Below are positions 14,309 through 62,880 of a stretch of DNA of 64,000 nucleotides, piece by piece (the stretch's first letter is position 1; each line of letters starts with the position of its first letter). The notes under the pieces are model-generated. The model ran no database searches. It saw only the letters and a program-made list of their open reading frames with translations, and had not been told where the DNA came from. The translations under genes were made by a program, and so were the position numbers. Origin of the DNA: Candidatus Cloacimonadales bacterium (GTDB lineage Bacteria; Cloacimonadota; Cloacimonadia; Cloacimonadales; JAIOQZ01); NCBI GenBank assembly GCA_963662655.2, contig CAXXTU010000002.1:1216001-1280000 (forward strand), in the 5' to 3' direction.

Positions 14309-14449
14309 ATCGAGAGTAGATTTGCTTTTCTCCTTCCGAAGCCGTGTTGTTACACGTTCGAATCGATTACCACAATCAACCAACTACATAATTGATGAGG
14401 ACGTGTTATATACACGGCGAGAGGAAGGGAGAAGCAAAGGTACCTCGAT
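14309..14449 (+). repeat. Structured hairpin family, copy A
   Basis: ATCGAG-A-GTA-GA-stem...GCCGTGT TGTT ACACGTTC // GGACGTGT TATAT ACACGGC...stem-GG-TAC-CTCGAT. Confidence 0.8.
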
Positions 14450-14477
14450 TGGCATATTCAAGCCGTATAATCTACCA

Positions 14478-14600
14478 TCGCGGCATCTTCGTCCGATCTG
14501 TGCTCCAACGTGGATATAACACGCTCCTGTAACTATCGAACGCAATAATGGAGCGTGTAACACCACGTTTCAGCAACAGATCGAACGAGTCTGCTCACGA
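14478..14600 (-). repeat. Structured hairpin family, copy B
   Basis: Minus strand reads TCGTG-A-GCA-GA-CTCGTTCGATCTG...AACGTGG TGTT ACACGCTCC..GTTCGATAGTT..GGAGCGTGT TATAT CCACGTT...CAGATCGGACGAA-GA-TGC-CGCGA. Confidence 0.85.
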
Positions 14601-14609
14601 CTCTTGCTT

Positions 14610-14640
14610 AAAAAAAACCTCTCCGTGTAACACGGAGAGG
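14610..14640 (-). terminator. Intrinsic terminator of the EEP gene
   Basis: Perfect stem CCTCTCCGTG-TAA-CACGGAGAGG, preceded by A8 on the plus strand. Confidence 0.85.
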
Positions 14641-14664
14641 CCAAAGAGAGTATATCGGTTATTT

Positions 14665-16185: not shown

Positions 16186-16335
16186 AATTTTCTCCATACA
16201 TTTTCTACCATACCATGATATTGGCGGCTCAGATATTGTCAATGAATAGGTGCAGGTTGTGCTCGCATGCTTAAAAAAAGAAAACCCGCCATCGACAATA
16301 CTGCCGGCGGCGGGAATTGAATCGGGAGACCAGGT

Positions 16336-17175
16336 TTAGAAAAATCCACCTTCGAAATTCAGCATAACACTGAATCCGGAAAGATCAGAGTCGTCGAAAT
16401 CCACCAGTTTCGTATCGAAGTCAACGCCGTTCACGTAGCGATACGAAGCGCCGACACCGCACTTGAAGTATCTGGCGACATTCACCATGACATTCACACC
16501 CGGTTCCAGCACGAAGAAAGAGTCGCTGTCAATTTTACGATCGTCGTCGTCCTCGTCGTCATCGTTGTCCCAGTCGTCATCGTCGTCGCGATACTGCAAG
16601 CTTGCGCCACCTGCTCCGATGAGCGTGGTCACGGAGAAGTTCACGAGATCTTTGGGATTGATGCGGTATTCCAGATCGAGTCCGCCATAGCCCCAATAAA
16701 TCTGAATGCTGGAGTCCCTGATCGCGTGCTCGCGGACGAGATGATTAGTCACCATACCGTATCCGGCCAGACCGATACAGAATTTGTGATCGATAATGTA
16801 GCCGAGTCTGCCACCAACCAGAAGTTCGTACTCGTCGTCCATATACGTACCCTTTACAACGGGACCGCCGAAACCGCCATGCGCGATCTTACCCGAAAGG
16901 AGCGTTTCCTGATTGAGCACATACCGCGAAGGGATTTTCGTCTCGCGCTTCATCTCGAGCTGCTTGCGAACAAGCTCCCTCTCTCTTTCGTCATCGACGC
17001 TGATGTCTTCCACGGTCGCTTCGTCAAGCTCCGCTTCCGCTTCGTCGGCGGCTATTATGTTGACGTCCTTCTCGATCGTCGTCTCGTTTTTCGTCTCTTC
17101 CGCAACGTCATTATCCTGCGCAAATGCCACAACGGCAAATGCAAGAATTGCAATAATCATGATAATCCGTGACAT
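16336..17175 (-). CDS. Predicted outer-membrane beta-barrel protein
   Basis: Signal peptide, amphipathic glycine/aromatic strands (GGFGGP, GYGGL, FFVLEPG, GASYRYV) and a terminal Phe. Confidence 0.65.
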   Translation of the reverse strand: MSRIIMIIAILAFAVVAFAQDNDVAEETKNETTIEKDVNIIAADEAEAELDEATVEDISVDDERERELVRKQLEMKRETKIPSRYVLNQETLLSGKIAHGGFGGPVVKGTYMDDEYELLVGGRLGYIIDHKFCIGLAGYGMVTNHLVREHAIRDSSIQIYWGYGGLDLEYRINPKDLVNFSVTTLIGAGGASLQYRDDDDDWDNDDDEDDDDRKIDSDSFFVLEPGVNVMVNVARYFKCGVGASYRYVNGVDFDTKLVDFDDSDLSGFSVMLNFEGGFF

Positions 17176-17281
17176 GATTCCTCCTTATGTCAGCAAGTTA
17201 TTTTCTAATCTCGAACCCATAGTGAATTTTATATTCGCTTTTGAGCCAGACAAGAACCGGCACACCAACTTCATATTGACA

Positions 17282-17896: not shown

Positions 17897-17925
17897 GAGC
17901 GATACTTCCTTTTTCATTCGCTTTT

Positions 17926-17944
17926 AATGAATCACGAGTTCATT
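17926..17944. promoter_or_regulatory. Candidate TetR operator (related site at 17222-17238)
   Basis: Palindrome AATGAA-N7-TTCATT just upstream of the TetR gene. A similar GTGAA-N7-TTCGC lies upstream of the next gene. Confidence 0.5.
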
Positions 17945-24340: not shown

Positions 24341-24341
24341 T

Positions 24342-38401: not shown

Positions 38402-41400
38402 ATGAAAAAGTTCATGTTGTCAGTTTTCCTGTTTTTTACTTTTCTTACACTTCTTGAAGCAGCTCCTGTCCTGCAGAGCGACGCAGATATCGTCGCGGAT
38501 AACTGGAGCAAACACTGGAGTGTACTGCATAACCGTGAAATAAACGTGAGTTATTCGGAATCGATCGGGACACAGATGTATCTGTATCACCTGGATCCTG
38601 CCGGATTCATCCTGATCTCGGCTGACGATAACCTCGAGCCGATTCTGGCCTACGACTTCACGAGTACTGCACCTGCCGAGAAACCAGCCGGCTTCTTGAA
38701 CTGGCTGGATGTTTATCAGGAAGAATGCGATTACGTTCGCGTTCACGAAATCGAAGACGCACGTTGTAATCAACTGTGGTCCGACCTGTTGTCGGACGAC
38801 CTTTCCCGCTATCGTAACACTCGCAATGTGTCTCCGATGATTTGGTCGCAATGGGGAGAACAAGACGATTGGAATCAAGCCTGTCCCCCTGACCCGATTG
38901 GCCCCGGCGGGAATGCCTACGCCGGCAGCCATGCTGTCGCGATGGCCATGCTGATGAAATACTGGAATCATCCTGCACAGGGTGAAGGACAGAACAGCTA
39001 TTACCTCCCGGATTACGGAAATATCGAAGCGGTGTTCGATACAACTCATTACGGTTGGACGCACATGCCGAACACTTTCAGCACCAACTGGACAGAGGAC
39101 TTGATCTTCCATTGCGGTGTCGCGACATCCATGAACTACGGCCCAACAAACTCAACCACTTCGATCGACGCAGTGGCTCAGGCGATGATCGATCATTTCC
39201 GCTACAGCTCCGAAATCGATCTCCTGGAAAGGTCGGATTACGACGAAACCGCCTGGGAAGGAATGCTTCGAACTGAGTTGGAAAATGGAAGGCCGCTTTT
39301 TTATCAGGGCGAAGGCTCGGCCTTGCACGCTCACTTGCTGGATGGCTATCAAAACAACGATTACTTCCATTTCAACTGGGGAAACGAAGGTCAATTCAAC
39401 GGATACTTCCAGCTCAGCGCTATCACACCCTCTACGGCCAACTACACGTTGAACCAGAAAGCCCTGTTCAACATACAGCCAAGTCTCGGGCCTGTAACAA
39501 TCGACGAGAGCTTCGAGAACGACTGGAATACGTTCAACTGGGAATTCGCCGGACAATCAGAGTGGCAGATTGCCACAGACGAACATTTTTACGGCATCAA
39601 ATCAGCGAAGTCCGGTGACATCAACCACAACCAGACGTCAGAGATTTTCCAGTCCTGGAACGTATTCGCCGACGGTCCCATCACTTTCTGGCGCAGGGTT
39701 TCCTGCGAAGACGACGGCGATAACGGCTATGACCGCCTGGAATTCTGGATCGACGGAGCCGAAGTGGGTCGCTGGGGCGGCGAACGAGGCTGGGAGCAGA
39801 TATCGTACGATATCCCGGCCGGCGTGCATGAGTTCCGCTGGGTCTATCGAAAAGACGGTAGCCTTGTCTCCGGACAGGACTGCGCGTGGATCGATGCGAT
39901 CGACTTCCCGAACGGCGCAACGCCGTTGAACGCCCCCCGGAACTTCACCGCGGAGATCGTGAACGATGATTCCGTTCTCATGACGTGGGAAGCGCCGCTG
40001 ATCCGTAACCTTCTCGGCTATCGTATCTACAGGAATAACGTCGAGATAACGACGATACTGAATCCGAACACCCTTCAGTTCATCGATCCCGACCTGCCAA
40101 ACGGATCCTACTCGTACTTCGCCAGAGCAGTTTACGATTCGGGCGTATCCGATCCTACCGTCACCTATAATATCAATATCGAGGTGCTCTATCCTCCCAC
40201 GGCTCTCGTGGCGGCGGTGTCGAATTTCGATGACGTACTGCTTGCCTGGAACATGCCAGCGACGCAGCAGAGTCGGCGAACACCCCGTGAACTCACCCGC
40301 AGCCTGCTGGGCTATCGCATTTACCGCAACAACACCCTGATCGATTCGGTTAGCGGTCAAACTACCTTGCAATACGCCGAGAACGATCTACCGGAAGGAA
40401 CATACGAATATCGTGTATCGGCAATCTATTCAAGCGGTTATTCAGAGCTTTCCAACGTCGCCGTTGCGGCTATTGGCGTTCCCTGGCCGCCCTCCGGGCT
40501 GACGGCACAGGTTCAGAATTTCGACGAAGTCTTCCTGGATTGGACTGCGCCACCGCAGACAATGGAAACACTAACAGGCTACAAAATATACCGAAACCAG
40601 AGCCTTGTGCATGAACTGACGGACGCCACCAACACCAGCTACACCGAAGTTGACCTGCCCAACGGCACGCACGAGTATCAAGTCACAGCAATCTATGGGG
40701 AAATCGAGTCCGGACCATCGAATACGGCAATGGCTGCGATTGAAGTACCCTATCCGCCTCGAAACCTCACCGCGGATGTCGTTGAGGACGACGTTACGCT
40801 GGATTGGGACGCCCCATCCACTGGATCGCGCAGTCTCAGCGCTTACTACGTGTACCGTAACAACAGCCCGATCGCGACGATTTGGAATACCAACGTGACT
40901 TCGTACTTCGATCCCATGCTGGCGAACGGATTCTACGCCTACAAGGTCGTCGCAGTTTACGGCGATGTATATTCAGAACCCTCTAACATCGTGAATATTG
41001 AAATGGATATCCCCTATCCGCCATCCAACCTGACGGCACAGATCGAGAATCTGAACGACATCGTTCTGAATTGGGAACAGCCGCCGGTTCAGAGTGGATT
41101 GCGTTCGTTTATCGGATATCATGTCGTACGAAACGGCGTCGATCATGCGCTGGTGACGGATTTCAACCAGTTGACCTGGACCGACGGGAACGTAGACAAC
41201 GGCGTCTACGAATACTCCGTTTACGCTGAATACAACGCAGGAAATTCAGAACCCACGAACGATGTCGAAGTAACGGTGGAAGTGCTGTATCCTCCGCGGA
41301 ACCTTTCATATTCCATCGTGGATGACGATGTCGTTCTGACCTGGGACTTACGGTAACCGGCGGCGGCCTCAGCCGTGACCTGCTGGGCTTCTCCATCTTC

Positions 41401-44400
41401 CGCGACAGCGACCTGATCCAGACAATCAGCGATCCCGCCGTCCTTACCTGGACGGACATGAACCTTGCGAACGCCACATACACATATTATATGCAAGCGA
41501 ACTACACCTCCGGCGTCTCGGCTCCGACCGACGATCTCGAGGTCATGGTTGAAGTATTCTATCCGGCTACGAACCTGGTTGGCGAGATTGTCGATGAGGA
41601 CGACGTAGCGCTGTCCTGGTCTCCCGCATTGAACTCGGGCGGTCTTCGCATGTTACAGGGCTACCGTGTGTACAGGAATGACGCGGCGATAACCGATGTC
41701 ACTCCCGCCGACACGACCTGGCTCGATACGACACTTCCCAATGGTGATCACATCTACTACGTGAGAGCCATGTACGAAAATGGTCTTTCGACCGAGACAA
41801 ACCACGTGCCGATACACATCGAATTGATGTATCCTGCGCGGCAACTCACTACCTCCGTAGAAGGAGACGATGTCGGCTTGACCTGGCTGGCGCCGCTCAC
41901 CTCCGGCGGTCTATCGAGAGACCTCCTTGGATACAGAATCTACCGTGATTCTGAAGAAATAGCGATTATCGACGATCCGGCTCAAGTGACGTTCATGGAT
42001 ATGAACCTGGACAACGGATCCTACGGCTACACGGTCAGGGCGGAATACGCTGTCGGCCTGTCGGAGCCCACCAACACAGCGCTCGCGTTCATCGAGGTGT
42101 TGTATCCGCCAACAAACCTCGCGGCTGTTGTCGAAGAAGATGCTGTCAGTCTGAGCTGGAACATGCCGGAAAGCGGTTCCACGCGCAACTTACTGGGCTA
42201 CACGATCATCCGAAACGGAAACGTATTGCTGCAAATCGCAGATCCCGAGACCATCGGCTACGAGGATACGGGACTGGCGAACGGTGAATACGCCTACGAG
42301 ATTATTGCCGATTATTCCACGGGGCAATCAGCCCCTGACGGTACGGTAACGGCTTATGTAGAAGTGCTTTATGCTCCCAGGAACCTTAGCTGCTCCATCG
42401 AGAATTACTATAATGCCGTACTCACGTGGAATCCTCCGCTCAATCAGGGTGGACTGACAAGAGTAATGACAGGTTACGAGGTGTTCAGGGACAGTGTCCA
42501 CATCGCGGATGTGACGGAAGCGACCTACACCGATCCTGCTATACCGGACGGCTCGTATGATTATACGGTGAAAGCCGTATACTCATCCGGAGTATCGCAT
42601 GCTTCCAACTCCGTCAATGCCATCATCGAGTACCCTTACGCTCCAAGCGGATTGAGCGCCACGGTCAGCCAGGATACGGTTTCACTGACCTGGACACCGC
42701 CTACAAGCAACACGGTCCTTGGGTACACCGTCTACCGTGATGAAATTTCCATCGTCGAAATCAACGATCCGGCTGTCCTGAATTTTTCCGATACCGGTCT
42801 CCCTAACGGCGGTTATTCCTACTTCGTGACCGCCCGGTATAACGTAGATGATTCAGCGCCTTCCAATACAGTCACCGCAACGGTTGAAGTACTTTACCCT
42901 CCGCAAAGTCTTGCGGCTTCTGTCGATCAGGACGAAGTAGCGCTCACCTGGCAGCTTCCTGCCGTACAGGGCGGCTTGACCCGCGATCTTCTCGGCTACA
43001 AGGTCTACCGCGACGGCGCAGATATCGCCGAAATCAACGATCCTGCAACGCTCTCATACCTCGATGTTGACCTCGCCAACGGCGCGTACGACTACGAAGT
43101 AAGTGGAATTTATACATCTGGCGAATCTCAGATGTCAAACCTCGTCACCGCGACGGTTGAAGTGCTCTACCCGCCGCGCAGCCTTGCCGCTGCCGTCGAT
43201 CAGGACGAAGTTACGCTTACCTGGCAGCTTCCTGCCGTACAGGGCGGCTTGACCCGCGATCTTCTCGGCTACAAGGTCTACCGCGACGGCGCAGATATCG
43301 CCGAAATCAACGATCCTGCAACGCTCTCATACCTCGATGTCGACCTCGCCAACGGCGACTATGATTACGAAGTGAGCGCGCTGTATTCTTCGGGCGAATC
43401 GCAGATGTCAAACCTCGTCACCGCGACGGTTGAAGTGCTTTACCCGCCGCAGAACCTTGCCGCTGCCGTCGATCAGGACGAAGTATCGCTCACCTGGCAG
43501 CTTCCTGCCGTTCAAGGCGGACTGACCCGCGATCTGCTGGGCTACAAGGTCTACCGCGACGGCGCAGAAATCGCCGAAATCAACGACCCTGCAACGCTCT
43601 CATACCTCGATGTCGACCTCGCAAATGGCGCGTACGACTACGAAGTGAGCGCGCTGTATTCTTCTGGCGAATCGCAGATGTCAAACCTCGTTACCGCAAC
43701 GGTTGAAGTGCTCTACACGCCGCGCAGCCTTGCGGCTTCTGTCGATCAGGACGAAGTAACCCTCACCTGGCAGCTTCCTGCTGTGCAGGGCGGACTGACC
43801 CGCGATCTACTCGGCTACAAGGTCTACCGTGACGGCGCAGAAATCGCCGAAATCAACGACCCTGCAACGCTCACCTATCTCGATGTCGACCTCGCCAACG
43901 GCGCGTACGACTACGAAGTGAGTGCGCTGTATTCTTCGGGCGAATCGCAGATGTCAAACCTCGTCACCGCGACGGTTGAAGTGCTTTACCCGCCGCAGAA
44001 CCTTGCCGCTGCCGTCGATCAGGACGAAGTAACGCTCACCTGGCAGCTTCCTGCTGTGCAGGGCGGACTGACCCGCGATCTACTCGGCTACAAGGTCTAC
44101 CGCGACGGCGCGGAAATCGCCGAAATCAACGACCCTGCAACGCTCACCTATCTCGATGTCGACCTCGCCAACGGCGACTATGATTACGAAGTGAGCGCGC
44201 TGTATTCTTCTGGCGAATCTCAGATGTCAAACCTCGTTACCGCGACGGTTGAAGTGCTCTATCCGCCGCGCAACCTTTCGGCTGTCGTCGATCAGGACGA
44301 AGTTACGCTTTCCTGGCAGCTTCCTTCCGTTCAAGGCGGCTTGACCCGCGATCTACTCGGCTACAAGGTCTATCGCGACGGCACGGAAATAGCGGTTATC

Positions 44401-47400
44401 AACGATCCTGCAACGTTCTCATACCTCGATGCCGACCTCGCCAACGGCGCGTACGACTACGAAGTGAGCGCGCTGTATTCTTCGGGCGAATCGCAGATGT
44501 CAAACCTCGTCACCGCGACGGTTGAAGTGCTCTACCCGCCGCGCAGCCTTGCCGCTGCCGTCGATCAGGACGAAGTTACGCTCACCTGGCAGCTTCCCGC
44601 CGTACAGGGCGGCTTGACCCGTGATCTTCTCGGCTACAAGGTGTACCGCGACGGCGCGGAAATCGCCGAAATCAACGATCCTGCAACACTTAACTATCTC
44701 GATGTCGACCTCGCCAACGGCGCGTACGACTACGAAGTGAGTGCGCTGTATTCTTCGGGCGAATCGCAGATGTCAAACCTCGTTACCGCGACGGTTGAGG
44801 TACTTTACCCTCCGCAGAATCTTGCGGCTGACGTCGATCAGGATGAAGTGATCCTTACCTGGCAGCTCCCCGCCGTTCAAGGCGGACTGACCCGCGATCT
44901 GCTGGGCTACAAGGTCTACCGTGACGGCGCAGAAATCGCCGAAATCAACGACCCTGCCACGCTCTCATACCTCGATGTCGACCTCGCCAACGGCGCATAC
45001 GACTACGAAGTGAGCGCAATTTATACATCGGGCGAATCGCAGATGTCAAACCTCGTCACCGCGACGGTTGAAGTGCTCTACCCGCCGCGCAGCCTTGCGG
45101 CTTCTGTCGATCAGGACGAAGTTACGCTCACCTGGCAGCTTCCTGAAGTGCAGGGCGGCTTGACTCGCGATCTTCTCGGCTACAAGGTGTACCGCGACGG
45201 CGCAGATATCGTCGAAATCAACGATCCGGCCACGCTCACCTATCTCGATGTCGACCTCGCCAACGGCGACTATGATTACGAAGTGAGCGCGCTGTATTCT
45301 TCGGGCGAATCGCAGATGTCCAATCTCGTCACCGCGACGGTTGAAGTGCTCTACCCGCCGCAGAATCTTTCTGCTGCCGTCGATCAGGACGAAGTGACGC
45401 TTTCCTGGCAGCAGCCTGCCACACAGGGCGGACTGACCCGCGATCTACTCGGCTACAAGGTCTACCGCGACGGCGCAGAAATCGCCGAAATCAACGCCCC
45501 TGCAACGCTCTCATACCTCGATGTCGACCTCGCCAACGGCGCGTACGACTACGAAGTGAGCGCAATTTATACATCTGGCGAATCGCAGATGTCCAACCTC
45601 GTCACCGCGACGGTTGAAGTGCTTTACCCTCCGCGCAACCTTTCGGCGGAGGTTTCCAATGAGGTTGACGCCATTCTGAATTGGGATGCCCCGCTTACCG
45701 GTGGCCGTTCACTCAACGGCTATCTCGTGTTCCGCAATGGATCGCTGGTTGCGACAATCGGTACACCGGCGCAGCTCACATGGACAGATTACAGCTTGCA
45801 GAACGGTGGATACGATTATTCGATTAAGGCGTTCTACACGACCGGGCTGTCACCCGCAAGCAACACCGCGCATGTGGACATCGACTACAACCCGGTGCTG
45901 GATGCGCCAACCAACTTGAACGCAACAGTAGTCAATGGCAATGATGTCGACTTGGGCTGGACAGCTCCTGCATCGACACAAATCGGCTATAAAATCTACC
46001 GTGATGGTGAAGAGATCGCTGAATTGACCGACCCTGCTACCGTCAGTTTCACCGACACCGAACTTCCTAATGGCGTGTATACCTACGCTGTCACAGCGGT
46101 TTATTCCGAAGGTGAGTCATCCCCATCCAACACGGCATACGCGGATATCCTGATAACCTCACCGCCGCAAGAGCTTGCCGCTCAAATCCAGAACGACAAC
46201 GACGTCGCACTAAGCTGGGATCCGCCAGTGAATGCGGGATACACAGGCTATGTGGTGTATCGCAACGACAGCGTTATCGCTGTTGTGGAGGCAAGTATTG
46301 TCAATTACACCGACATCGGACTCCCAAACGGTGAATACGACTACTATGTGAAAGCGCAGTTCAACGATAACCTCTCCGTCGCCTCCAACACGGCTTCCGT
46401 TTTGGTGGAGATTCTGTTCCCTCCAACGGATCTGACAGCGGATGTCGTGGATGGCAACGATGTCATCCTTGCCTGGACAGCACCGGCGACCAGCCGCAGC
46501 CTCCTGGGTTACAACATCTATCGTAACAATGACCTGATTGAAGAGGTGACCGGGGTTCTGACGTACACAGATAGCAATCTCGCCAACGGCGCGTACGACT
46601 ACGAGGTGAGCGCAATTTATACATCGGGCGAATCGCAGATGTCCAACCTCGTTACGGCGATGATCGAAGTGCTATATCCGCCGCAGAACCTTACCGCTGA
46701 CGTCGATCAGAACGACGTGACGCTGTCGTGGCAGCAGCCTTCCATGCAACGCAGATTGACCCGCGATTTCCTGGGCTACAAGGTTTACCGCAACGGCACG
46801 GAAATAGCCAATATCAGCGATCCGACCACGCTCACGTACCTCGATGTCGATCTCGCCAACGGCGCGTACGACTACGAAGTGAGTGCAATTTATACATCGG
46901 GCGAATCACAGAGGTCAAACCTGGTTACGGCGATGATCGAAGTGCTGTATCCGCCGCAGAATCTTGCGGCTGACATCGATCAGGACGAGGTGACGCTGTC
47001 GTGGCAGCAGCCTTCCATGCAACGCAGATTGACCCGCGATTTCCTAGGCTACAAGGTTTACCGCGACGAAGTAGAAATCGCCAATATCAGCGATCCGAGC
47101 GCACTCAGTTATCTCGATGCCGATCTCGCCAACGGCGCGTACGACTACGAGGTGAGCGCAATTTATACATCGGGCGAATCGCAGAGGTCCAACCTCGTTA
47201 CGGCGATGATCGAAGTGCTGTATCCGCCGCAGAACCTTGCGGCTGACATCGATCAGGACGAAGTGACGCTGTCGTGGCAGCAGCCTTCCGTACAGGGCGG
47301 ACTGACCCGCAGCCTACTCGGCTACAAGGTCTACCGTGACGGGGCTGAAATCGCCAATATCAGTAATCCAACCACACTCAGCTATCTCGATGCCGATCTC

Positions 47401-49095
47401 GCCAACGGCGCGTACGACTACGAGGTGAGTGCGGTTTACACAACGGGGGAATCGCAGAGGTCCAACCTTGTTACGGCTACGGTTGAAGTGCTGTATCCGC
47501 CGACCGGGCTAACGGCCACGGTGACTGTCGACGATGTGCTACTCAACTGGAGCGTCCCGCAGACGCATCGAAGAAACCGCAGCCTGACAGGCTACCAGTT
47601 GTACTGCAATGAATCTGTCATCGCAACCATAGACAACCCGGCGATCACGACATATACCGAGACCGATCTGGTGAACGGAAGTTACACATACGAAGTTCTG
47701 GCGGTCTATTCTTCAGGCAATTCTCCTCTGTCTGATCCTGCTGTCGCCGTCATCGCCGTAGTGACGCCTCCCGAGAATCCGGTGTTCACGATCGTGAACG
47801 GAAATGATGTCCTCATCACATGGGATTTACCCATCAACCAGACCACGCCAAGCTTCTACACGGTTTATCGTGACGGCGCTGGCGTCCATACCACGGATAA
47901 CGGATCCGTACTCACCTGGACAGACACAGGTCTCGAGAACGGCGATTTCAACTTCTGGCTAACGGCAACCTATGACGCCGGCGAGTCGATCGCGACCGAC
48001 ACGACACTGGTGCAGATCGCGGTGATGAATCCTCCCACAGGGCTTGCAGCCGATGTGAGCCTGGATATGGTGCATCTCACATGGGTTGAACCCATAAACG
48101 CAAGCGGATTGCAGGGATACACCATCCATCGCGATAACGTGGAGATCGCCCACATCACTGATGCCGAGATACTCGTCTACGACGATAACGATCTGGCGGG
48201 GGGTAACTACCAATACTTCGTCACGGCTACTTTCACCGTCGGAGAATCGGAACCTTCGAACACGGTTGACGCCACGGTTCTGCTACCACCTCCGGGCAAC
48301 GTTTCAGCCACACCGGACAGCAGTGATGTTGTGGTGAGTTGGGACATGCCGGCATTGCGCAGTCTTATTGGATTCCGCATCTATCGCGAAGGAGTAGAGA
48401 TCGCTGTTCTCAACGATCCAGGTCAGCTTGAATACACCGATGCGAACTTGCCTAACGGCGACTATTCCTATACGGTTCAGTCCTTGTTCACGTCCGATGC
48501 TTCAGCGCAAAGCACGCCGGCAACATGCACGGTGGAAGCGCTCTGGGCGCCCGAGAATCTTGCGGCGACCCTTGATAACGGTAACACGGTCAACCTGACA
48601 TGGGATGCACATCCCATGGGGATTACCATGACAGCATACAAGGTGTACCGTGATGATGTTGAGATCGCACGGATTGACGACCCGGCAGTAACGCAATATG
48701 ATGATCCCGAGCTGGCACCAGGGAATTATACGTACACCGTAACGGCTCTCTACAGCAGCGGAGAATCCGATCCATCCAATGAAGCCCTTGTGGAAATTCA
48801 CGCCAACGGTGACGAGCCTATTCCGCCGATTACGACGCAGCTCAAAGGGAATGCACCGAACCCGTTCAATCCGAGCACGACCCTCATGTTCAGCATCGCC
48901 AGTGATGGCCCTGTGAACCTGACTGTGTACAACGTGCGTGGGCAAAAAATCGCCACGCTGGTGAACAACGAAATTCTACGCGCCGGCGAGCACAGCGTTG
49001 TATGGAACGCCGACACGGTTGGAAGCGGCGTCTACTTCGTCCGCATGAGCGCTCAGAAGAGCCAGTTCATCCACAAGATGCTGCTGCTGAAGTAG
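38402..49095 (+). CDS. Giant secreted protein (~3,564 aa if joined): C10 peptidase-like domain, adhesin-like domain, many FN3 repeats and T9SS/FlgD-type CTD; interrupted by a 1-bp frameshift near 41351
   Basis: Propeptide GFILISADD..PILAY and C10 motifs (LMKYWNHP, GRP, DGY, FHFNWG..G..NGYF). ORFs 38402-41356 and 41458-49095 join through 'WDL(P)VTGGGLSRDLLG' if one base is added. Confidence 0.88.
42883..45612 (+). repeat. Ten near-identical 273-bp tandem repeats (91-aa FN3 units)
   Basis: VEVLY(P/T)P starts recur every 273 bp (42883, 43156 ... 44521 ... 45340). Confidence 0.95.
46663..47481 (+). repeat. Second block of three 273-bp FN3 repeats
   Basis: IEVLYPPQNL units at 46663, 46936 and 47209, closely related to the first block. 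Confidence 0.9.
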
Positions 49096-49112
49096 CCTGT
49101 AAACCCTATTAG

Positions 49113-49142
49113 AAAAGAGGGGGAGCTTCTGCCCCCCCCTTC
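49113..49142 (+). terminator. Terminator hairpin after the giant gene
   Basis: Stem GAGGGGGAGC...GCCCCCCCCTT. Confidence 0.6.
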
Positions 49143-49251
49143 AGACCATTGACAAAGCCCGGGAGATTACCCGGGCTTTGTTTTTCCCCTTGGATTTTAA
49201 GGATCAGACACCATTCGTAGTACCCGTAAACAACTTACCACAAATAATATA
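49142..49251 (+). mobile_element. Possible orphan IS left end (IS1182-like), truncated by ISL3
   Basis: CAGACCATTGACAAA followed by the hairpin CAAAGCCCGGG/CCCGGGCTTTG, directly abutting a terminator stem. It resembles IS1182-type ends but has no ORF. Confidence 0.35.
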
Positions 49252-50598
49252 GGCACTGTTGCATATTAAGTGGGTGAATGGGTATTCAGATATCCGCAAC
49301 ATTGCAGAACCTTCAATCTGAAGTATGAGAAGTCCTTGTATCCATACGCTCTCTTTATAATGGTTCGAATGACGTTGTTAACCGCTTCTGCCTTGGCATT
49401 CGTGATTCTATGCTTGAACCAGTTCAACACAATATGCAATCTCTTCATAATCGTTCTTGCAAGTGCCTTCAGTGGCTCGAAGACGGTTTTCTGAATAACT
49501 CTGCACCACTCTTCAATCATCGGCTTCGCTTCTTCTTGCGTAATATCGTCTTCGAAAATCGATAGTAAATCTTCTTTGAGCAAATAGGCTTCGTAAAGGG
49601 GATGATTTAGCGTCTCCAGTTTCTTGAGTCGGGCTTGATGGTTTTCTTTGTGATTGTGTTTTCTGGTCAAAACCAACCACCGGTCGTGTTTCTTGCTCTG
49701 ACGCAACTTGTCAGATTCAAAATCTCTCTGAAGTTCTCGTCGTACTTCTTCCACTTTTCTGTTGACCAGGCGGCTGAAATGGAAACGATCAAATACGATC
49801 ATATCGGCACTCCAACACTCGGAAACAGCGCCGATATATGAACCACTGAAATCCATTGTTACGGTATCAATCCAGCGGAGTCGTCGTTCGTATTTTCGAA
49901 ACAACTCCTTCGCACTTTCTTTCGATTTGCCCATTGTCAGGTCGATCACACGCCCGTCCTCATGGTTTGTGATAACCGTTGCATACTTATGCCTTCGCTT
50001 ATAACCAATCTCGTCAATTGCAATCTGATCGACATTCGGAACTCGTCCTCTATAACCCTTTTCCAACTTGGATAACTCAATTTTGTCGATTCGATAAATC
50101 GTACTCCGATCCACACCGAATATCCGTGCTACAGAAGCATTGTCTGAACGAAGCGTGAACTGGAGAACCTTATTGCCGAAGTCTTTAGAGTGTCGATTGA
50201 GACCCTCGGCAATATCCTGTTGTTCAGTTTTCACTCCACACTGAGCGCAGTTGATCCGGCGAAGCGTCAGCACAAGTACTACGGGACGACAGGATATGGA
50301 TGCATGAAGAATTTTGCGGACTCGATGATCATAAACTGTTCCCACAATACCGCATGTAGGACAACGTGGCTCATCTTCCTTTCGAACATGGACTTCAATG
50401 CATGGATAAGTTTGATACGTACCTTCGATTATCTGGTCGGCAGAATAACCTTGCAAAGCCAACAACGTTTTACAGACTTGTTTTCTGAGAGGATCATTCA
50501 TCTCTATCTCCTTGTTGTGGTGATTAGGAGATTGTACGAGATCGGGTGATTCCTCTCAATCTTTTTTTCGACTTACCCACTAAGTTTGCAACAGTCCC
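49252..50598 (-). mobile_element. ISL3-family insertion sequence (1,347 bp)
   Basis: Imperfect 24-bp terminal IRs GGCACTGTTGCATATTAAGTGGGT and GGGACTGTTGCAAACTTAGTGGGT (rc of right end) enclose a single transposase. No target duplication is visible. Confidence 0.9.
49266..50501 (-). CDS. ISL3-family DDE transposase
   Basis: Zinc finger CPTCG...CAQC and motifs IAIDE, VTMDF, VFDRFH and TNAKAEAVNN...KRAYGY. Confidence 0.95.
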   Translation of the reverse strand: MNDPLRKQVCKTLLALQGYSADQIIEGTYQTYPCIEVHVRKEDEPRCPTCGIVGTVYDHRVRKILHASISCRPVVLVLTLRRINCAQCGVKTEQQDIAEGLNRHSKDFGNKVLQFTLRSDNASVARIFGVDRSTIYRIDKIELSKLEKGYRGRVPNVDQIAIDEIGYKRRHKYATVITNHEDGRVIDLTMGKSKESAKELFRKYERRLRWIDTVTMDFSGSYIGAVSECWSADMIVFDRFHFSRLVNRKVEEVRRELQRDFESDKLRQSKKHDRWLVLTRKHNHKENHQARLKKLETLNHPLYEAYLLKEDLLSIFEDDITQEEAKPMIEEWCRVIQKTVFEPLKALARTIMKRLHIVLNWFKHRITNAKAEAVNNVIRTIIKRAYGYKDFSYFRLKVLQCCGYLNTHSPT

Positions 50599-52298
50599 TT
50601 ATATTAGACGAATCGGTAATTAGCGGATGCTCTTCCGATGCATCTGTTTTAAGTACCGATTTTTACTCAGGAGGCTTTGTCGGCAAAATTGATGGTCCAT
50701 CCATAATCACACGAAGCCACTGTTCAGGCAACGTCACAGGAAGAAAATACGTCGGGCGCTTCATCGGTATAAATGATATTAGAGAGACGTTTTCGCGCAA
50801 TGTAAACAACTCTTACTCCAGTTGTAATGTAAATGGCGATGGGCATTGCGGGGGATTTTCTGCAAGTCCGTGGAGAGGAAACTGCTGGAACTGCCGTTAC
50901 GATTATGAATCCGTCACGATCAATGGTGATCATTCGATAACGTATGGTGCAATCGGAACCGAGATTTTTGACGTATGGTTACAGAATGACCTTGTTGTTG
51001 ACATAAATAACTATTTCGAAATCGTTGATTCTTGTTGCCTGATCTACTCATTTGACGATCTACGCAACACCCTCCACTTTTGTGAAGAAGACAGTTGCCG
51101 ATTTCTCTTGATGAATGATTTGGACTTAGCGAACCATCCGAACTTCTTCATACCTGCATTTTGCGGTGAATTTGATGGAAACAGGCACACAATTTCCAAC
51201 CTATGCCTCGATATGCCGCATAGTTCTTCCGTAGGATTCTTCAGCAAGCTAGTGGATGCGAAAATCTGCAATCTCACACTAAACAACATCAATATTCATG
51301 GTGTAAATTATGTTGGAGGAATCGCCGGACTACTCGGCGGTAGCCAAATCATTTCCAATTGTCATGTGAATGGAGAGATTTCTGCATCCAGCTATTGTGG
51401 CGGCTGTTCAGGTAAATCGGGAAATGAGCTGTATTTATCGAAATGCAGTTTCAAAGGTTCAATCACAGGCGATGAATACCTTGGCGGTTTTGTGGGGATT
51501 TCTTATGCATCCGTTAACTGTTACATTTCGGAATGTTGCAGTAAAATGGATATCCGAGGTGATTCATATGTTGGAGGATTTGGTGGCTATATGCGAGATA
51601 ATACCCGTATCGAGAATTCTTATTTCCATGGTCCAGTAGAGGGTGATTCTTACTCGGGTAATCTTATCGGCTATGTATCAGATATAACAATGATCAATTG
51701 CTATTCAGCCAGCACCAGTCGTAATAGAATCTCGATGGGCTTATTCATGGAGAGCGACGACTGCTTCTTCAACACTGATCTCAATGGATTGTCATATGAC
51801 AACTACGCCATCGGAATCACATCCGAAGAGATGCGGGATATCGCAACATATACCGATCTCTCCCTCTTCAATCTTACCGAAGCGTGGGATTTCCCCGGAT
51901 ATCCGTACGACGATTTGGGCTTCATGGACATCTGGAGCATCGATCCCTCGATCAACGACGGATTCCCGTACCTGAGTTGGGAGACATTCCTGCCCGTCGA
52001 GGATTCCCCGGAAGAAACCCCTCTTCCCATTTCCGCGCTGCAAGGCATCTACCCCAATCCATTCAACCCGGAAACGACGATTCGCTTCAGCGTCGCGCAG
52101 GAAAGCGCCGGCACGATCGAAATCTTCAACATCCGCGGTCAGCGCGTGCAGCAGTTTAAGGATTTCACGGCGGGAGAGCACGAAGTCGTATGGAACGGCA
52201 CGGATTCCGTTGGGAAATCGGTCGGAAGCGGGATATACTTTTGTCGCATGACGGCAGGCGACCGCTCCGCCACGCAAAAAATGTTGCTTCTGAAATAG
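50599..52298 (+). pseudogene. 5'-truncated GLUG-repeat secreted protein with T9SS/FlgD-type CTD
   Basis: The reading frame begins right at the IS end, with no RBS or signal peptide. Contains YVGGIAG/YVGGFGG repeats, F.GEFDGN.HTISNL, INDGFPYL and YPNPFNP...KMLLLK. Confidence 0.75.
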
Positions 52299-52311
52299 AC
52301 ATACCGCTGAA

Positions 52312-52437
52312 GGTGTGAGCAGGTTTGCTCGATCTCCCGCGAAGGCGTGGTGTTACACACCTCATTTTGTTGTTCGATAGTTTACCTGGTGTGTTATATC
52401 CACGTCGTAGCGGAAGATCGGGCAAAAGTGCCACACC
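52312..52437 (+). repeat. Structured hairpin family, copy C
   Basis: GGTGTG-A-GCA-GG-TTTGCTCGATCT...GGCGTGG TGTT ACACACC..GTTCGATAGTT..GGTGTGT TATAT CCACGTC...AGATCGGGCAAA-AG-TGC-CACACC. Confidence 0.85.
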
Positions 52438-52512
52438 GTAAAATTATTGCTGCAACACGATGCCAAACTCCTCCCTATCCACCCACAATAACCATGAATT
52501 CGGACTTTTTCA

Positions 52513-55375: not shown

Positions 55376-55464
55376 ACGTTCAACCTCCAGAAGATCATCC
55401 GCGTCAATCGGACACTGTATCCAATTCGTTGCCAAGATGTAATTTTTGTCAACGATAACATATT

Positions 55465-55622
55465 GTTGGCTTACCCCCAATTTTCTGTGTAATCTTGATT
55501 CGATGAATATTGGTCGATGTTATCCACAGTTTCTTTCGACTCTATGGGTGATCCAGGTTATCACTTCTCGAAACCTACAGCCAGGAAGTCACACCGTGGA
55601 TAACTGCATCCATTCCAGACGG
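55465..55622 (-). repeat. Dispersed ~160-bp repeat with inverted DnaA boxes, copy 2
   Basis: Shares TGATAACCTGGATCACCCATAGAGTC and CAAGATTACACAGAAAA with copy 1. Carries TTATCCACA (55520-55528) and CGTGGATAA (55595-55603). Confidence 0.85.
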
Positions 55623-55914
55623 TTGCAATATATTTGTGTCATTATTGGATTCCAGGATTTTCGTTACTCTAAACCAACAACTGAGCGGAGTCGAAGACAA
55701 AGATCATCATCTACCTTGTGTTTGTCCGCGATCGATAACTCATGAGCCACCGACACATTTTTAACAACTCTGCGCGGTGCCTGAAAAAAAATATTTCTCC
55801 GAGCAACAAAAGATACTTGACAACCCCGATAAATTAGCAATAATAAAGTATGGAATGGAATATGCATTCATAGAATTAACAACTTGTTCCGGGCAACAAA
55901 CGCGAGGAGGAAAT

Positions 55915-58054: not shown

Positions 58055-58091
58055 AAAAAAACCGGTAGTCGCATGGCTGCCGGTTTTTTTT
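58055..58091. terminator. Bidirectional intrinsic terminator
   Basis: A7-CCGGTAGTC-loop-GGCTGCCGG-T8. Confidence 0.85.
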
Positions 58092-58092
58092 A

Positions 58093-58184
58093 CAGCGAGG
58101 CAGATTCCTGCTCTTAGGAAAGCGTGGATGGAAGGGAAGCAGTGGCGTTATACTTCAAGGATCGTGCCAATGTGGCCCGTGCTG
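58093..58184 (+). repeat. Structured hairpin family, decayed copy F
   Basis: The right arm GTGGCGTTATAC..AGGATCGTGCCAATGTGGCCCG matches copy E. The left arm is mostly lost. Confidence 0.55.
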
Positions 58185-58209
58185 CCAATTGAGAAATAAG
58201 TGTTCTACC

Positions 58210-58336
58210 GGCATGGCATCTTCGCCCGATCTCCCGCTCCGGCGTATATATACCACACCTTTATAACTATCGAACCGAGACAATAAGGTGTGGAACAATA
58301 CGCCTGCGCGGCAGATCGGACGAACCTGCTCCTGCC
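58210..58336 (-). repeat. Structured hairpin family, copy D
   Basis: Minus strand reads GGCAGG-A-GCA-GG-TTCGTCCGATCT...GGCGTAT TGTT CCACACCTT..GTTCGATAGTT..AAGGTGTGG TATAT ATACGCC...AGATCGGGCGAA-GA-TGC-CATGCC. Confidence 0.85.
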
Positions 58337-58342
58337 TCGTGC

Positions 58343-58720
58343 TTACACGTATCTTCCGACCATCACGCCGGTTAAGATTGCCGCCAGTCCCAATCCGTTC
58401 TGCAGAACAATATTGGCCGCCGCGTGCATCCATGCTGAGGATCGTACCAGTTCGCTGGTATCGACCATCACCGCCGAGAACGTGGTGAAAGCTCCCATGA
58501 ATCCGATGAACACGATCATCCTGACATCTGCCGAGAGGTGCATTCGATTCTCGAAGAAAGCCAGCAGCACACCGGCAACAAAGCTTCCGAGCATGTTCAC
58601 GAAGAAAGTCCCGCCGAACACCGCATGACTCGACAGTTTACCGATCCAAACCGCAAGACCGTATCGGGCAAGCGTCCCCAAGCCACCTGCAATCGCGAGG
58701 AATATCAAATTCTTTATCAT
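58343..58720 (-). CDS. crcB: Fluoride efflux channel FluC
   Basis: 125 aa with motifs GGLGTLARY, GTFFVNMLGSF and GFMGAFTTFS. Confidence 0.93.
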   Translation of the reverse strand: MIKNLIFLAIAGGLGTLARYGLAVWIGKLSSHAVFGGTFFVNMLGSFVAGVLLAFFENRMHLSADVRMIVFIGFMGAFTTFSAVMVDTSELVRSSAWMHAAANIVLQNGLGLAAILTGVMVGRYV

Positions 58721-58927
58721 CTATCGTTCTCCATGATTTTATTCATACGCGAACCAATCCTTTTAAAGTTCGCGAGAGACGTCAAGTACGATCGTTGACC
58801 TACGCACAAGGAGACGAAGGAAAAGGGAAGCCGCCATGCATTCCAGCGCAAATTACATTGACACAATCAATTCCAAATACCATAATGGATTATAATGTTA
58901 TTATTATTCGTAATCAAAGGAGATAAA

Positions 58928-61900
58928 ATGAAATACCTATACTTTTCTCTTCTTTTCCTGTTGATAGTCGTCGTTCTTCCTGCCGAGACCCTGATCAACA
59001 GCAATATTACGGCCGACGAAACATGGACGCTTTCGGGATCTCCCTATGTCATACAGGCCAACATCTTAATCTACGGTACGCTGACCATCGAAGCGGGTGT
59101 CGAAGTCAAAATCGACCCGGGTAAATACATTATCGTTGGGCATGGAACGACCAGCGTATACGCCGGAGCGATTTCCTCAATGGGCACCGTTTCACAACCG
59201 GTTGTCTTCACTTCATCGCAGGCAGAACCCGCACCCGGTGATTGGGACTACATCCAGTTCCGCAGATACCTCGTCGCGGAGAACTGCGTTCTCAACCATA
59301 CCCATTTCGAGTATGGCGGCAACGGCACCAACTCAATGGTTCGCGTCGGCGATTGCAGCCCGGTGTTCAACACATGCAAGTTCTCTCATGCCAACAACAT
59401 TGGATTGGATAACGAGAGCGATCTGGAGAGTTCACAATTCAACAATTGCACATTCGAATATTGCGGCTCAAATCCTGTTCGCATGCCCGTCAATTACGTC
59501 AATCGGATCGACGAAAGCAATGTTTTCGAGAACAATGCCATCCAGATGGTCCAAGTGTGGGACGACATGATCAATACGGAGCAAGCCTGGGTAAATGTTG
59601 GGATTCCGTTTCATATTAGCGAAAACCTCAGGATCTATTATACAGACTCGCCGATGACAATCGCTTCAGGGTGCGAGCTTGTCTTCGCGTCGAACAAGTA
59701 TATGAAGGTCGGGCACTCCACTTCTTCGGGCTATTGCGGCGGACTCATAGCGAACGGCGCTACGTTCCGTGGCGAGACTGGAACCCCCGGCGAGTGGTAC
59801 GGTGTCACAATCGAGTATTACAATTGTGGCGCGTCCTTCACAAACTGTACGTTCCGAGATGGCGGATACACATGGAATACCACATTCAGGCTGGCAAATA
59901 CGACCGCAACACTGGAGCAGTGCGTCGTTGCCAACTCGTCGGGATACGGAGTTCAATGTTCGGAGAATGCGACGTTGTTGATGAACAACACCGAAATTTA
60001 CAATTGCCAAGGCCCGATCAGTATGTACCCGAACAATCTTACGGGACTCGGAACGGGAAACTCGTATCATGACAACGCGGATAACCGGATCCAACTACCA
60101 GGAGATACTATCGACAAGGATGTAACGTGGAGAAATCAGGGATTCCCTTCAAAGTCGATGGGAATATTTTCATCCGTGGCACACAAATCCCTTCGGTGAC
60201 AATCCAGTACGGAAGCATCCTGCAGTTTGCAAGCGGACAATACCTGCTGGTTGGCCATTCGTCCACACCTTCCTACAAGGGAAAGCTTATCGCCAACGGA
60301 GTAACGTTCACTGGCCAGAACGAAGCCCCCGGGAGTTGGGTTGGCTTGTCGTTCCTGAGCTATGGAAGCAACGAAACGATCTTGAATGGCTGCAAAATTC
60401 AGTACGCCGGGCAGATCAACAATCGCTCAGTATATATTGAACAGTGTGATATAACGGTCACCGGATGCACTATTCTCGACGGCCAGGGCGACGGTATCTA
60501 TGTGTACGATAGCACCGCTCCATCGATCACCGGCAACCAGATTGAAAATTGCAGCGAGTACCCCATTTCGATGTTCGTAAACGATATTCGCCACCTTGGG
60601 AGCAACAACGATTTTACCGGCAATGGATTCGAAGTAATCGAGTGCCGCAGTGGAACCCTCACCAGTTCTGGAACATGGCAGGATTGCGGCGTTCCTTACT
60701 ATCTTACCGGCAATCTGACCATCAGCGGAACCGCCTCTCCCTACCTGCAAATCCAGCCCGGGTGCGAGATCCGACTTGCCGCATCCAGCATGATCAGCGT
60801 CGGCAGCAGTTCAAACTCGAGCTACACAGGCTCGCTGTGCGCAGAAGAAGTCCTGTTCACAAACGCGGCTCCCGAGCAGAGGATAAACGGCATCCTTTTC
60901 AACAACTATGCAGTCGATGAACGTTGCGTGCTGAACCATTGCACGATCGAGCACGCTGGAGGAAGCAATCAGGCTGCGGTGATAATCAATACGTCTGCGC
61001 CTACGATAACGAACTGTACGATACGTAACAACGACCAGTACGGCATTCGCGTAAATGAAGCCGCGCGTCCCGTTATTCGCGATTGCCTTATCGAAAACAA
61101 TGCGAGCTACCCGATTACGATGGATGCCCTGAACCTGCATTGCCTGGCCGAAGGAAACCAGTTTGTCGACAACAATCCCAACCGCATCCTGGCTGGGGGC
61201 GGCACACTCACAAGCAGCGTTACCTGGATCAATCAGGGAATTCCCTTCGAGATTACGGGAACGATCACGGTTTCCGCATCGAGCGCCTACCCTGTTCTGA
61301 CCATTTCCAACGGCTGCACCCTGCTTTTCTCCGCGAACACGGCCATCGTTTCCGGAAGCAGCACGAATAGTTCATACCGTGGAGGGCTTGTCGCGAATGG
61401 CGCTTCCTTCAAAGGCCTGGAACCCACGCCAGGATACTGGCAGGGGATTACCTTCAATCGCTATGCCTTGGACGACAGTTGCATTCTGAACGGCTGCGTC
61501 GTTCAGCACGGGGGATCGTCGCAGGCGAACGTATCATTCATCGACACCCCGGGCTTGGTGCAGCGCTGCCTGATTGCCAATTCCGCAAACCACGGAATCC
61601 GTACCTATGGAGCAAACGCAGACCCAATCCTTTCGGGCAATTTCATTATCATGAATCAGGCAGGCGTTCTGTGCGAATCGAGTGCCGATCCGCTCATTGG
61701 CGGCGCACCGGGAAACGCCAACGCGATCTTTGGAAACACGAGCTATGGCGTGAACAACACCAGCACGAATGTAACCGTCGATGCAACCTACAATTGGTGG
61801 GGCTCCGCAGATGGCCCGTCAATATCCAGAACAGGAGATTTGGTTTCAGACCATGTATCGTACGATCCATGGATGACGACAACGCTCAGCGAATCGCCCA

Positions 61901-62751
61901 GCATTTTCAACCTGGTGTCACCCGAAAACGATACCACATGCGGCCGGCTTGACATCCTCTTCAATTGGGAAATGGCAACGGATCCAACCCCTGGCGATTC
62001 CGTTCTGTATAGGCTGGAGATCAGGGACACACCGGAGATCGGGCGCACGGTTGTCACTGTCGATAGTATAGCCGCCAGCACGTACCGCGTATCGGGCGAG
62101 CTTCTTCTCGACGACAGCAACTACTGGTGGCGCGTTATCGCCTTCGACACGCAGGGGCACGAGACCTATTCCAGCCAGCAAGACTGGGCCTTCACAACGT
62201 TCGTTCCCGATCCGCCCGACGACTTTTCCCTTGTGTCTCCCGCCAATTACGAAACCATTCATCTGACGTCAATCATGTTCGAGTGGCAGGCTGCCACCGA
62301 TCCCGACCCGGGAGATTACCTTGAATACACCGTATATCTGGATTCGACAGCTGCATTCCTCTCGCCCGATTCGATAGCGGTCACGGAGACCAAGGTTTAT
62401 TCCCCATTCCTGCGGCCAGGAAGCCTCTACTACTGGAAGGTTATCGCCACCGACAGCTACGGGGAATCGACGTCGAGCCCGATGCAGCGCTTCTACGTGG
62501 ATGATAACGCGAAACCGCGCACCCCGATCGAGCTATCGATTACCGTGGCGGGGGACAATCTGGAAATATCCTGGGAGGAAATCCCCGGCGCAGACCAGTA
62601 CCATATCTTCAAGTCGGATGCCCCATTCTCCGGATTCTCCCAGATAGCCACATCGAGCGTAAGTCAGTTCACGGATACCGATGTCGATCTAACGCAGAAA
62701 TACTTCTATTACATCGTCGTGGAGGATATCGAGAACCGGTGGACGCGATAA
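58928..62751 (+). CDS. Secreted right-handed beta-helix repeat protein with C-terminal FN3-like modules (~1,274 aa if joined); 1-bp frameshift near 60141
   Basis: Signal peptide, TWTLSGSPY, LTIEAGV, repeated PG.W..I modules and DATYNWWG. The two ORFs join as 'WRNQGIPF', matching the intact internal repeat 'WINQGIPF'. Confidence 0.85.
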
Positions 62752-62769
62752 ATTGGTAAAATAGTTGAA

Positions 62770-62880
62770 GTCCCGCGGTCAGATTGGTTCGAGCAATCCG
62801 ATGGCGTATTCATTCACAGCCGGAGTGTCTCGGAGGCTGTGGTGTTATACGCCGAGGATCGGGCCAATGTGACCCGGGAT
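62770..62880 (+). repeat. Structured hairpin family, divergent copy E
   Basis: GTCCCGCGG-TCA-GA-TTGGTTCG...GGCGTAT TCATT CACAGCC // GGCTGTG GTGTT ATACGCC...GATCGGGCCAA-TG-TGA-CCCGGGAT. Confidence 0.7.

Follow-up and report, generated by a model that had tools for sequence, protein, structure and literature searches.

REPINs are doublets of REP (repetitive extragenic palindromic) sequences forming a hairpin; compensating changes of the spacer are common in them, and their excised form has a single-stranded tail (PMC3116915). A REP sequence carries a GTAG or CGTC tag at one end (PMC3733652). Elements of the IS200/IS605 family of insertion sequences (ISs) are oriented with the replication fork, their active strand lying on the lagging-strand template (PMC3971601), and miniature inverted-repeat transposable elements (MITEs) are defined by terminal inverted repeats and target-site duplications, often matching IS ends (PMC3184786). 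Here we describe a family of rod-like hairpins, of which six candidate members (elements A to F) had been proposed, in an earlier note made from the sequence alone, in a stretch of 64,000 nucleotides from a Candidatus Cloacimonadales bacterium (GenBank assembly GCA_963662655.2, contig CAXXTU010000002.1, positions 1,216,001 to 1,280,000). We refer to this whole stretch as the window and number positions from its first letter.

We find that the stem pairing of these elements is maintained by compensating changes and that their orientation tracks replication, not transcription. We put at roughly one half the probability that the rods, about 143 intergenic copies in a family found in one genus, work as folded single-stranded DNA, as non-autonomous elements like REPINs or bacterial interspersed mosaic elements (BIMEs), and not as RNA of 3′-untranslated regions (3′-UTRs).

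Results

Five elements of the window belong to one dispersed family

Elements A to E are long rods whose fold energy is matched by none of 200 shuffles (RNA parameters), and all five are recognized by a covariance model that was built from 37 full-length copies and run on the window with filters off. Elements B (14474 to 14604, minus strand; 136.8 bits; fold −67.8 kcal/mol, z −9.31), C (52309 to 52440, plus strand; 132.2 bits; −67.1 kcal/mol, z −8.97), and D (58207 to 58339, minus strand; 139.1 bits; −73.2 kcal/mol, z −10.02) are of the canonical short type, B with the GTTCGATAG apex. Element A (14306 to 14452, plus strand; 77.0 bits; −66.9 kcal/mol, z −10.45) is a divergent copy with its own apex and forms the left half of a tail-to-tail pair with B. 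Element E (62769 to 62881, plus strand; 42.3 bits, E = 9e-9; −65.2 kcal/mol, z −7.31) belongs to a divergent subtype of seven copies with the loop motif on opposite arms. The proposed kinship of six elements thus holds for A to E (z −7.3 to −10.5; 42.3 to 139.1 bits), whereas F (58093 to 58184, plus strand), which lies left of D and tail to tail with it in the manner of A and B, is only a decayed remnant of the E subtype. Element F has no stable fold (−25.2 kcal/mol, z +0.54, with 134 of 200 shuffles folding equally well) and no covariance-model match at E ≤ 1 (whole window, filters off), and the E-subtype profile matches it at 58135 to 58179 only (22.5 bits). The anatomy listed in the earlier note is present. 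Above a basal stem and a bulged A come a stem of 3 bp and a 2×2 G-A/A-G mismatch; a long stem then leads to the TGTT/TATAT loop and on to the GTTCGATAG apex.

We found further copies in the genome that holds the window (G000; 3.81 Mb, 98.95% complete) and in three congeners (G001, G002, and G003). BLAST with B, C, or D as query gave about 100 related loci each. With nhmmer we detected 136 copies in G000, to which a profile of the E subtype added 7 loci, E included, for the total of about 143; the covariance model matched 129 among the 150 scored of 1302 candidates. Copy lengths center on about 130 nt, with smaller clusters at about 150 to 160 and 185 nt and a single copy of 397 nt. All are intergenic, 31 copies first counted inside open reading frames (ORFs) having proved to be artefacts of short spurious ORFs or of ORF-start extensions, and they are spread chromosome-wide, as befits the dispersed, non-autonomous family that had been suggested. 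A 136-kb contig (G000:C1) carries six elements, five of them on the plus strand.

Stem pairing is maintained by compensating changes

The suggestion that selection acts on the structure of each copy is borne out by the stems, in which 94 to 96% of cells pair and compensating changes occur at 29 to 34 of 40 pairs, as counted on model-fitted alignments. In the 37-copy alignment, 34 of the 40 predicted pairs have changed on both sides with pairing kept. Among the 84 short copies of G000, 3149 of 3335 cells are standard pairs despite a median pairwise identity of 65%. Nearest neighbors among these copies (83% identical) differ by 236 compensated double changes and 106 single changes saved by a G-U pair, against 135 single breaks and 50 broken double changes. 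In 46 copies of the three other species, which stood outside model building, 95.7% of cells are paired and 29 of 40 pairs have changed on both sides, in an alignment fitted to the model with two reverse-strand rows remaining in it; the same measure gave 75.4% for column shuffles and 34 to 44% when partners were slid.

Along the rod, constant modules are separated by helical spacers whose sequence varies among copies while the pairing stays, and the outermost stem also differs between copies. The word AGAT stands on both arms of the base and GTGTTA on both arms at the internal loop; because each word is read in the same sense on the two arms, the first yields the tandem G-A mismatch and the second the TGTT/TATAT internal loop, and both loops are two-fold symmetric. 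Two neighboring U-G pairs in the lower stem are conserved as well. The loop halves are canonical in 115 of 129 copies, swapped between the arms of the same strand in 4, and otherwise arranged in 10; they are also swapped in the E subtype. In the modeled fold, these swapped arms suggest that it is the folded single strand that is read, probably by a dimer. Two GATC sites occur in 82 of the 129 copies; we do not treat this as a meaningful feature, GATC being common genome-wide (observed/expected 0.85).

The fold is strand-specific, as had been claimed from its G-T pairs. When both strands of 129 copies were folded, the modeled strand had 710 G-U pairs and its complement 190. With RNA parameters the modeled strand was the stabler in 127 of 129 copies (mean gap 14.2 kcal/mol); with DNA parameters this held for 122 of 129 (mean gap 4.1 kcal/mol).

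Orientation tracks replication

We placed the origin and terminus of G000 by GC skew and dnaA: the cumulative skew is lowest at 2.68 Mb and highest at 0.78 Mb, dnaA is found at 2.766 Mb, and ORF orientation is mostly consistent with that origin. Relative to this map, 98 of 131 chromosomal copies have their folding strand as the lagging strand and 33 as the leading strand (p = 1.1e-8). The bias is also seen when inverted pairs are excluded (93 lagging versus 27 leading, n = 120) and among copies more than 150 kb from origin and terminus (82 versus 17, n = 99). Base composition does not account for it, the folding strand being rich in G and T. G001 is one contig and has dnaA at 1.658 Mb; of its 21 listed copies, 20 follow the lagging rule, with 9 of 9 plus-strand copies at 0.17 to 1.27 Mb left of dnaA and 11 of 11 minus-strand copies right of it, and the other, a plus-strand copy at 3.69 Mb, would need a mapped terminus to be judged. 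The lagging bias rises with hairpin stability: long types are lagging in 31 of 37 cases, and leading-strand copies are weaker (−34.5 versus −40.5 kcal/mol, p = 7e-4). This relation to replication was overlooked in the first reading of the window.

Gene context and an RNA role

One alternative is that the elements act as RNA, either stabilizing or destabilizing mRNA (as an RNase target or 3′ protector, in the manner of ERIC, the enterobacterial repetitive intergenic consensus, and of REP sequences) or as small RNAs of their own. Their position near gene ends agrees with this: the median distance to stop codons on either side is 35 to 51 nt (90 to 110 nt to starts), and, by gene orientations taken from our own crude calls of ORFs of at least 130 amino acids and not from annotation, 55 of 136 copies lie between convergent genes, which make up 19% of intergenic spaces. 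Divergent promoter regions are avoided, with 13 of 136 copies between divergent genes, which make up 23%. By the same calls, however, copies between co-directional genes are antisense in 46 cases and sense in 22 (p = 0.005). The lagging orientation dominates every gene-context class and is found in 13 of 13 copies of divergent regions, where there is no upstream sense gene. In convergent regions a gene is nearer the 5′ side of the copy in 29 cases and the 3′ side in 25, so that there is no polarity to the sense gene. An RNA role would also accommodate the strong preference for G-U pairs, the strand asymmetry, which is greatest with RNA parameters (−14.2 kcal/mol), and the reported co-transcription of many repeats of this sort, with an effect of ERIC on mRNA decay (PMC3184786).

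The earlier note had stated that the folding strand is always the sense strand of the upstream gene. Within the window this is correct but says little, five of the six copies being placed between convergent genes, where it is true by definition; genome-wide the rule fails in the co-directional spaces just described, and given these genome-wide orientations the pattern is a by-product of convergent settings.

Elements A and B sit beyond terminator-like sites of their upstream genes, which are separate hairpins upstream of the elements: one, with a T-run, lies at 14266 to 14292 (plus strand) between an M16 peptidase gene (Pfam) and A, and another, also with a T-run, at 14616 to 14642 (minus strand) between a gene for a nuclease/phosphatase with a type IX secretion tail (Pfam) and B. 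As intrinsic terminators the elements themselves tested negative, T occurring in at most 49 of 110 copies at each 3′-flank position from +1 to +30, and the sole terminator-like call inside an element in two scanned stretches was a 5-pair stem in D (58315 to 58303) whose tail has no T-run. The 5′ flank of the copies is not conserved and offers no conserved promoter. Against Rfam 15, the sole match of the whole window at gathering score was a tRNA, and five loci with elements, searched in E-value mode, yielded nothing beyond mir-1891 (30.8 bits, where the gathering score is 70); the elements do not fall in a known RNA family, as the first reading had held. On this sequence evidence the proposal of a 3′-UTR motif or noncoding RNA is not supported, and we regard action as RNA in any of the forms above as unlikely.

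Ends, turnover, and mosaic build

Past the 3′ end, weak conservation extends over about 8 bases; at +6, for instance, 66 of 110 copies have A. A scan of 129 copies for repeats of 3 to 8 nt, at left offsets of −10 to +7 and right offsets of −8 to +21, revealed no target-site duplication enriched outside the element's own conserved bases. Where copies are adjacent, all 9 of 9 pairs are arranged as plus then minus, with the 3′ ends facing and gaps of 11 to 54 nt.

The rods are also composite. The 185-nt type contains an apical module of 70 to 80 nt that is also found free-standing (16 matches outside elements) and in tandem arrays, and one rod bears this module four times in tandem. The apex is exchangeable; in 26 of 129 copies it is a second small repeat. 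This second repeat family consists of paired mini-hairpins, TTTCGGCTTTGAC...GTCAAAAC..., which occur free-standing just past gene ends and in tandem arrays with a period of about 53 to 71 nt; examples outside the window are L147:3398-3794 (G000:C2:1736697-1737093) and G000:C2:772302-772611. By analogy, the mosaic build is like that of BIMEs.

For comparisons between species we took the best-scoring copies of the relatives, 44 distinct loci. At nine of these, G000 also has a copy next to the same gene, in some cases inverted; at least 3 loci are occupied in G003 and empty in G000, and one G000 copy is absent from G001. The empty-site comparison suggested earlier therefore succeeds in showing presence and absence between species, but exact ends and empty sites cannot be mapped because genes of the genus are only 65 to 85% identical and intergenic DNA is unalignable. 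At most of the relatives' loci, the flanks of the element map to distant places in G000, and synteny breaks often coincide with elements, an observation made without a random-intergenic control.

These comparisons bear on a second alternative, in which the elements are architectural sites kept by the host, either BIME-like and bound by gyrase or IHF or serving as a polar chromosome signal, which are read as duplex or cruciform and whose polarity is selected to face the fork. The fixed arrangement of the pairs and the replication-linked polarity in two genomes are compatible with such sites, and the constant modules are kept in four species while the spacers change. Copies beside the same gene in different species are 50 to 74% identical, having retained the constant parts while the variable stems were replaced wholesale, and BIMEs are described as binding host proteins (PMC2817692, PMC3184786). 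Reading as duplex, though, would not favor G-T over A-C, whereas paired columns contain 265 G-U cells and 33 A-C cells, nor would it need compensation in the spacers; moreover, sites have been gained and lost between species, with only the 9 of 44 loci shared, and the family is found in one genus only. We consider this explanation quite unlikely.

A third possibility, that the rods are old inert palindromes whose pairing is kept by template-switch correction and whose polarity comes from deletion of stable lagging-template hairpins (both processes, templated quasi-palindrome correction and orientation-dependent hairpin deletion, are said to have been established in Escherichia coli by Ripley, by Lovett, and by Trinh and Sinden in 1991), accords with the rise of polarity with hairpin stability and with the failure to find near-identical dispersed copies or a transposase (Y1, TnpB, and, with silent controls, IS91/Y2), but it is very unlikely in our view, because correction would erase mismatches and yet at least 90% of copies, and all four species, retain the tandem G-A, the two G-T pairs, the bulged A, and the asymmetric loop, because the strand-specific G-U excess opposes the mutational skew expected of a lagging strand, and because the loop motif on swapped arms in the same strand sense fits recognition of the fold.

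The family is found in one genus

The family is present in all three congeners, and hence in 4 of 4 genomes of the genus. None of 37 other genomes from the same family and order yielded a match, nor did any of 148 genomes from 52 other genera of the phylum. Viral contigs gave no matches; in JGI metagenome contigs a strict pattern gave none, and a looser pattern gave 4 chance matches, none confirmed by the model. An exact 17-mer scan of genome contigs, for which 80 loci were given, contained one true copy (50.8 bits), in a record titled Candidatus Cloacimonadales, and one marginal copy (22.5 bits), the rest being swamped by chance matches. Among the literature matches listed, none joined Cloacimonadota names with REP or MITE terms.

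Search for a mobilizing enzyme

The earlier note had envisaged an HUH enzyme encoded elsewhere and a copy flanking a Y1 transposase (RAYT or TnpA) gene. Neither was found. In G000 there are no matches to Y1_Tnp (PF01797), for which the control was positive in 6 of 14 genomes, none to TnpB (PF07282), and none to IS91/Y2, although the last negative says little because both control searches were silent. The relatives do have Y1 matches (PF01797; 3 in G001, 2 in G002, and 7 in G003), among them a RAYT-like ORF of 209 amino acids, but none of 10 loci around these genes holds a rod element above 18.2 bits. Hairpins that do adjoin the relatives' Y1 genes were rejected as family members, their sequences being unrelated. 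Positions noted for the IS200/RAYT-like Y1 genes of G001 to G003 and their surroundings are L205:2094-2723 and L202:1335-1425. One such gene, in G001, stands amid short repeats. Another adjoins a distinct hairpin, about 90 nt long and composed of two inverted CCCACGGT-type units, that has the look of a true REPIN from another family.

Two other candidates were set aside. The one reverse transcriptase (C2:981409), in low-GC DNA, is interrupted by a stop, adjoins no element, and is unrelated to the rods; at L200:4050-5609 (G000:C2:981049-982608), a TGA divides it into ORFs of 148 and 358 amino acids, and it may be a decayed defense-type or retron-type enzyme. The sole multi-copy IS that we noticed, other IS families not having been surveyed, is an ISL3-family element of about 1355 bp, present in the window at 49250 to 50606 with an ORF at 49266 to 50501 on the minus strand (Pfam DDE_Tnp_ISL3 and Zn_ribbon_ISL3). 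It has 12 copies at least 99.3% identical and one partial copy, ends in GGCACTGTTGCA, and makes 8-bp AT-rich target duplications; its ends are unrelated to the rod ends, and we rejected it as mobilizer. Two of the 12 ISL3 copies lie 13 to 14 nt past the 3′ end of a rod element, an adjacency that reflects a preference for A/T runs, as the ISL3 ends and the AT-rich duplications indicate. Searches with unpaired 5′ and 3′ halves for an autonomous version carrying a gene gave noise only, and 35 ORFs scanned between close element pairs were housekeeping, flagellar, and phage genes, with no transposase.

Neighborhood of the elements

Element C begins 11 bases past the stop of the ORF at 50586 to 52298, and D lies immediately 3′ of the stop of a crcB-like ORF (58343 to 58720, minus strand; Pfam CRCB). 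Among the contigs of three DNA runs, at a depth of 2 to 5, none skips an element, and no variants were seen at the elements. Positions 38402 to 52298 encode a series of large secreted proteins that carry type IX secretion tails, including a C10 peptidase (38402 to 41356) and a 2545-amino-acid protein of fibronectin/Ig repeats (41458 to 49095). A stretch of about 200 nt at 55446 to 55643 has many 70 to 92% matches in G002 and a contig depth far above that of the flanking DNA; it probably represents a further multi-copy repeat or the end of an IS.

Discussion

The rods belong to a kind of object, REPIN-, BIME-, or ERIC-like, that is already known, and for that reason the description "novel structured RNA" given them at first was overstated. 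Like REPINs and BIMEs, they are high-copy and extragenic, with a long hairpin that has conserved ends and a less conserved, compensating spacer (PMC3116915), here a 40-pair consensus with the 34 and 29 compensated pairs given above. They further share with those elements a single-stranded tail by the hairpin, the lack of target-site duplication, and clusters of inverted copies, as well as a lineage-specific distribution with mostly vertical inheritance (PMC3116915, PMC3337134, RAREFAN preprint). The differences are also clear. A REPIN is a pair of 20- to 40-nt REPs, whereas the rods are 130 to 190 nt long; their tail is on the 3′ side, and copies are far more diverged. They lack the GTAG tag, the basal word being GAGCAG and the tag column C in 84, T in 13, A in 9, and G in 4 of 110 copies. 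Finally, G000 is without a RAYT or other Y1 gene, and the Y1 genes of its relatives stand beside unrelated hairpins.

In size and setting, the rods resemble ERIC, an imperfect palindrome of about 127 bp that forms a long stem-loop, is found at 3′ gene ends, and is non-autonomous, and, by description only, the MITE-like intergenic repeats grouped with it, Correia, RUP, and Nezha (PMC3184786). They differ from MITEs in having no 3- to 8-nt duplication at any boundary offset, a variable outermost stem, and no relation to the ISL3 ends. ERIC, for its part, has longer variants with internal insertions. The attC sites of integrons offer another likeness: structure is conserved over sequence, one strand folds, bases are extrahelical, and the terminal structure is variable; chromosomal integron arrays reportedly (Loot et al.) keep the attC folding strand on the leading-strand template. 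Unlike cassette arrays, however, the rods are spread chromosome-wide singly or in inverted pairs (no intI search was made), and both arms carry the same word, GTGTTA, instead of inverted R and L boxes.

IS200/IS605 elements are comparable in that strand-specific hairpins are recognized on single-stranded DNA, without target-site duplication and with replication-coupled orientation (PMC6006769, PMC3971601). They differ from the rods in having two subterminal hairpins, whereas here the rod is the whole element, and G000 has neither TnpA nor TnpB. The polarity of the rods is on the same side as that reported for IS91 and ISL3 (PMC3971601).

Several points weigh against reading the rods as folded single-stranded DNA of a REPIN- or BIME-like kind. 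The folding strand is the lagging strand itself (98 of 131), a polarity opposite to that of IS200/IS605 (PMC3971601). Tolerance of G-U pairs suits RNA no less than DNA, and the strand gap is 14 kcal/mol with RNA parameters and 4 kcal/mol with DNA parameters. The argument from gene direction depends on crude ORF calls, and no mobilizing enzyme was found. Nor did we find recent copies: nearest-neighbor identity is 83% in G000 and 73 to 87% in G001, and the genomes examined have no near-identical dispersed copies. Movement, if any, must accordingly be rare, and it is presence and absence between species alone that points to it.

If the rods do work as folded single-stranded DNA, a dimeric protein might read the symmetric loops on the folded strand and cut or copy the element without duplicating its target; that protein could since have been lost from G000. 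The polarity could arise in either of two ways. Copies with the stronger hairpin on the lagging-strand template may be deleted more often, which fits the stability trend, leading-strand copies being the weaker; hairpin loss reportedly depends on placement on the lagging-strand template (Trinh and Sinden 1991, and work on SbcCD). Alternatively, new copies may enter via the nascent lagging strand. The full combination, a RAYT-less rod that has its two symmetric internal loops read by a dimeric protein and is copied or retained via the nascent lagging strand, with a polarity opposite to that of IS200/IS605, is in our estimation doubtful, and we put it forward tentatively; if true, it would be a new kind of single-strand DNA element, with a route of mobilization or maintenance so far undescribed for bacterial repeats.

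Families of structured repeats between genes shape bacterial chromosomes, yet neither the enzyme nor the working form (DNA or RNA) is known for most. The present family provides an uncommonly clean data set of more than 140 old and diverged copies that still pair, with constant symmetric-mismatch modules, an exchangeable apex, and strong replication polarity in two genomes, and it separates transcription-linked from replication-linked constraints, which are usually confounded. It is, moreover, a case of a REPIN-like population that persists where the genome encodes no Y1 transposase. If a partner protein exists, it and the rods would be a new pair of protein and recognized single strand in an uncultivated phylum; if there is no partner, the family would test, in nature, how the survival of palindromes is decided by hairpin stability and fork direction.

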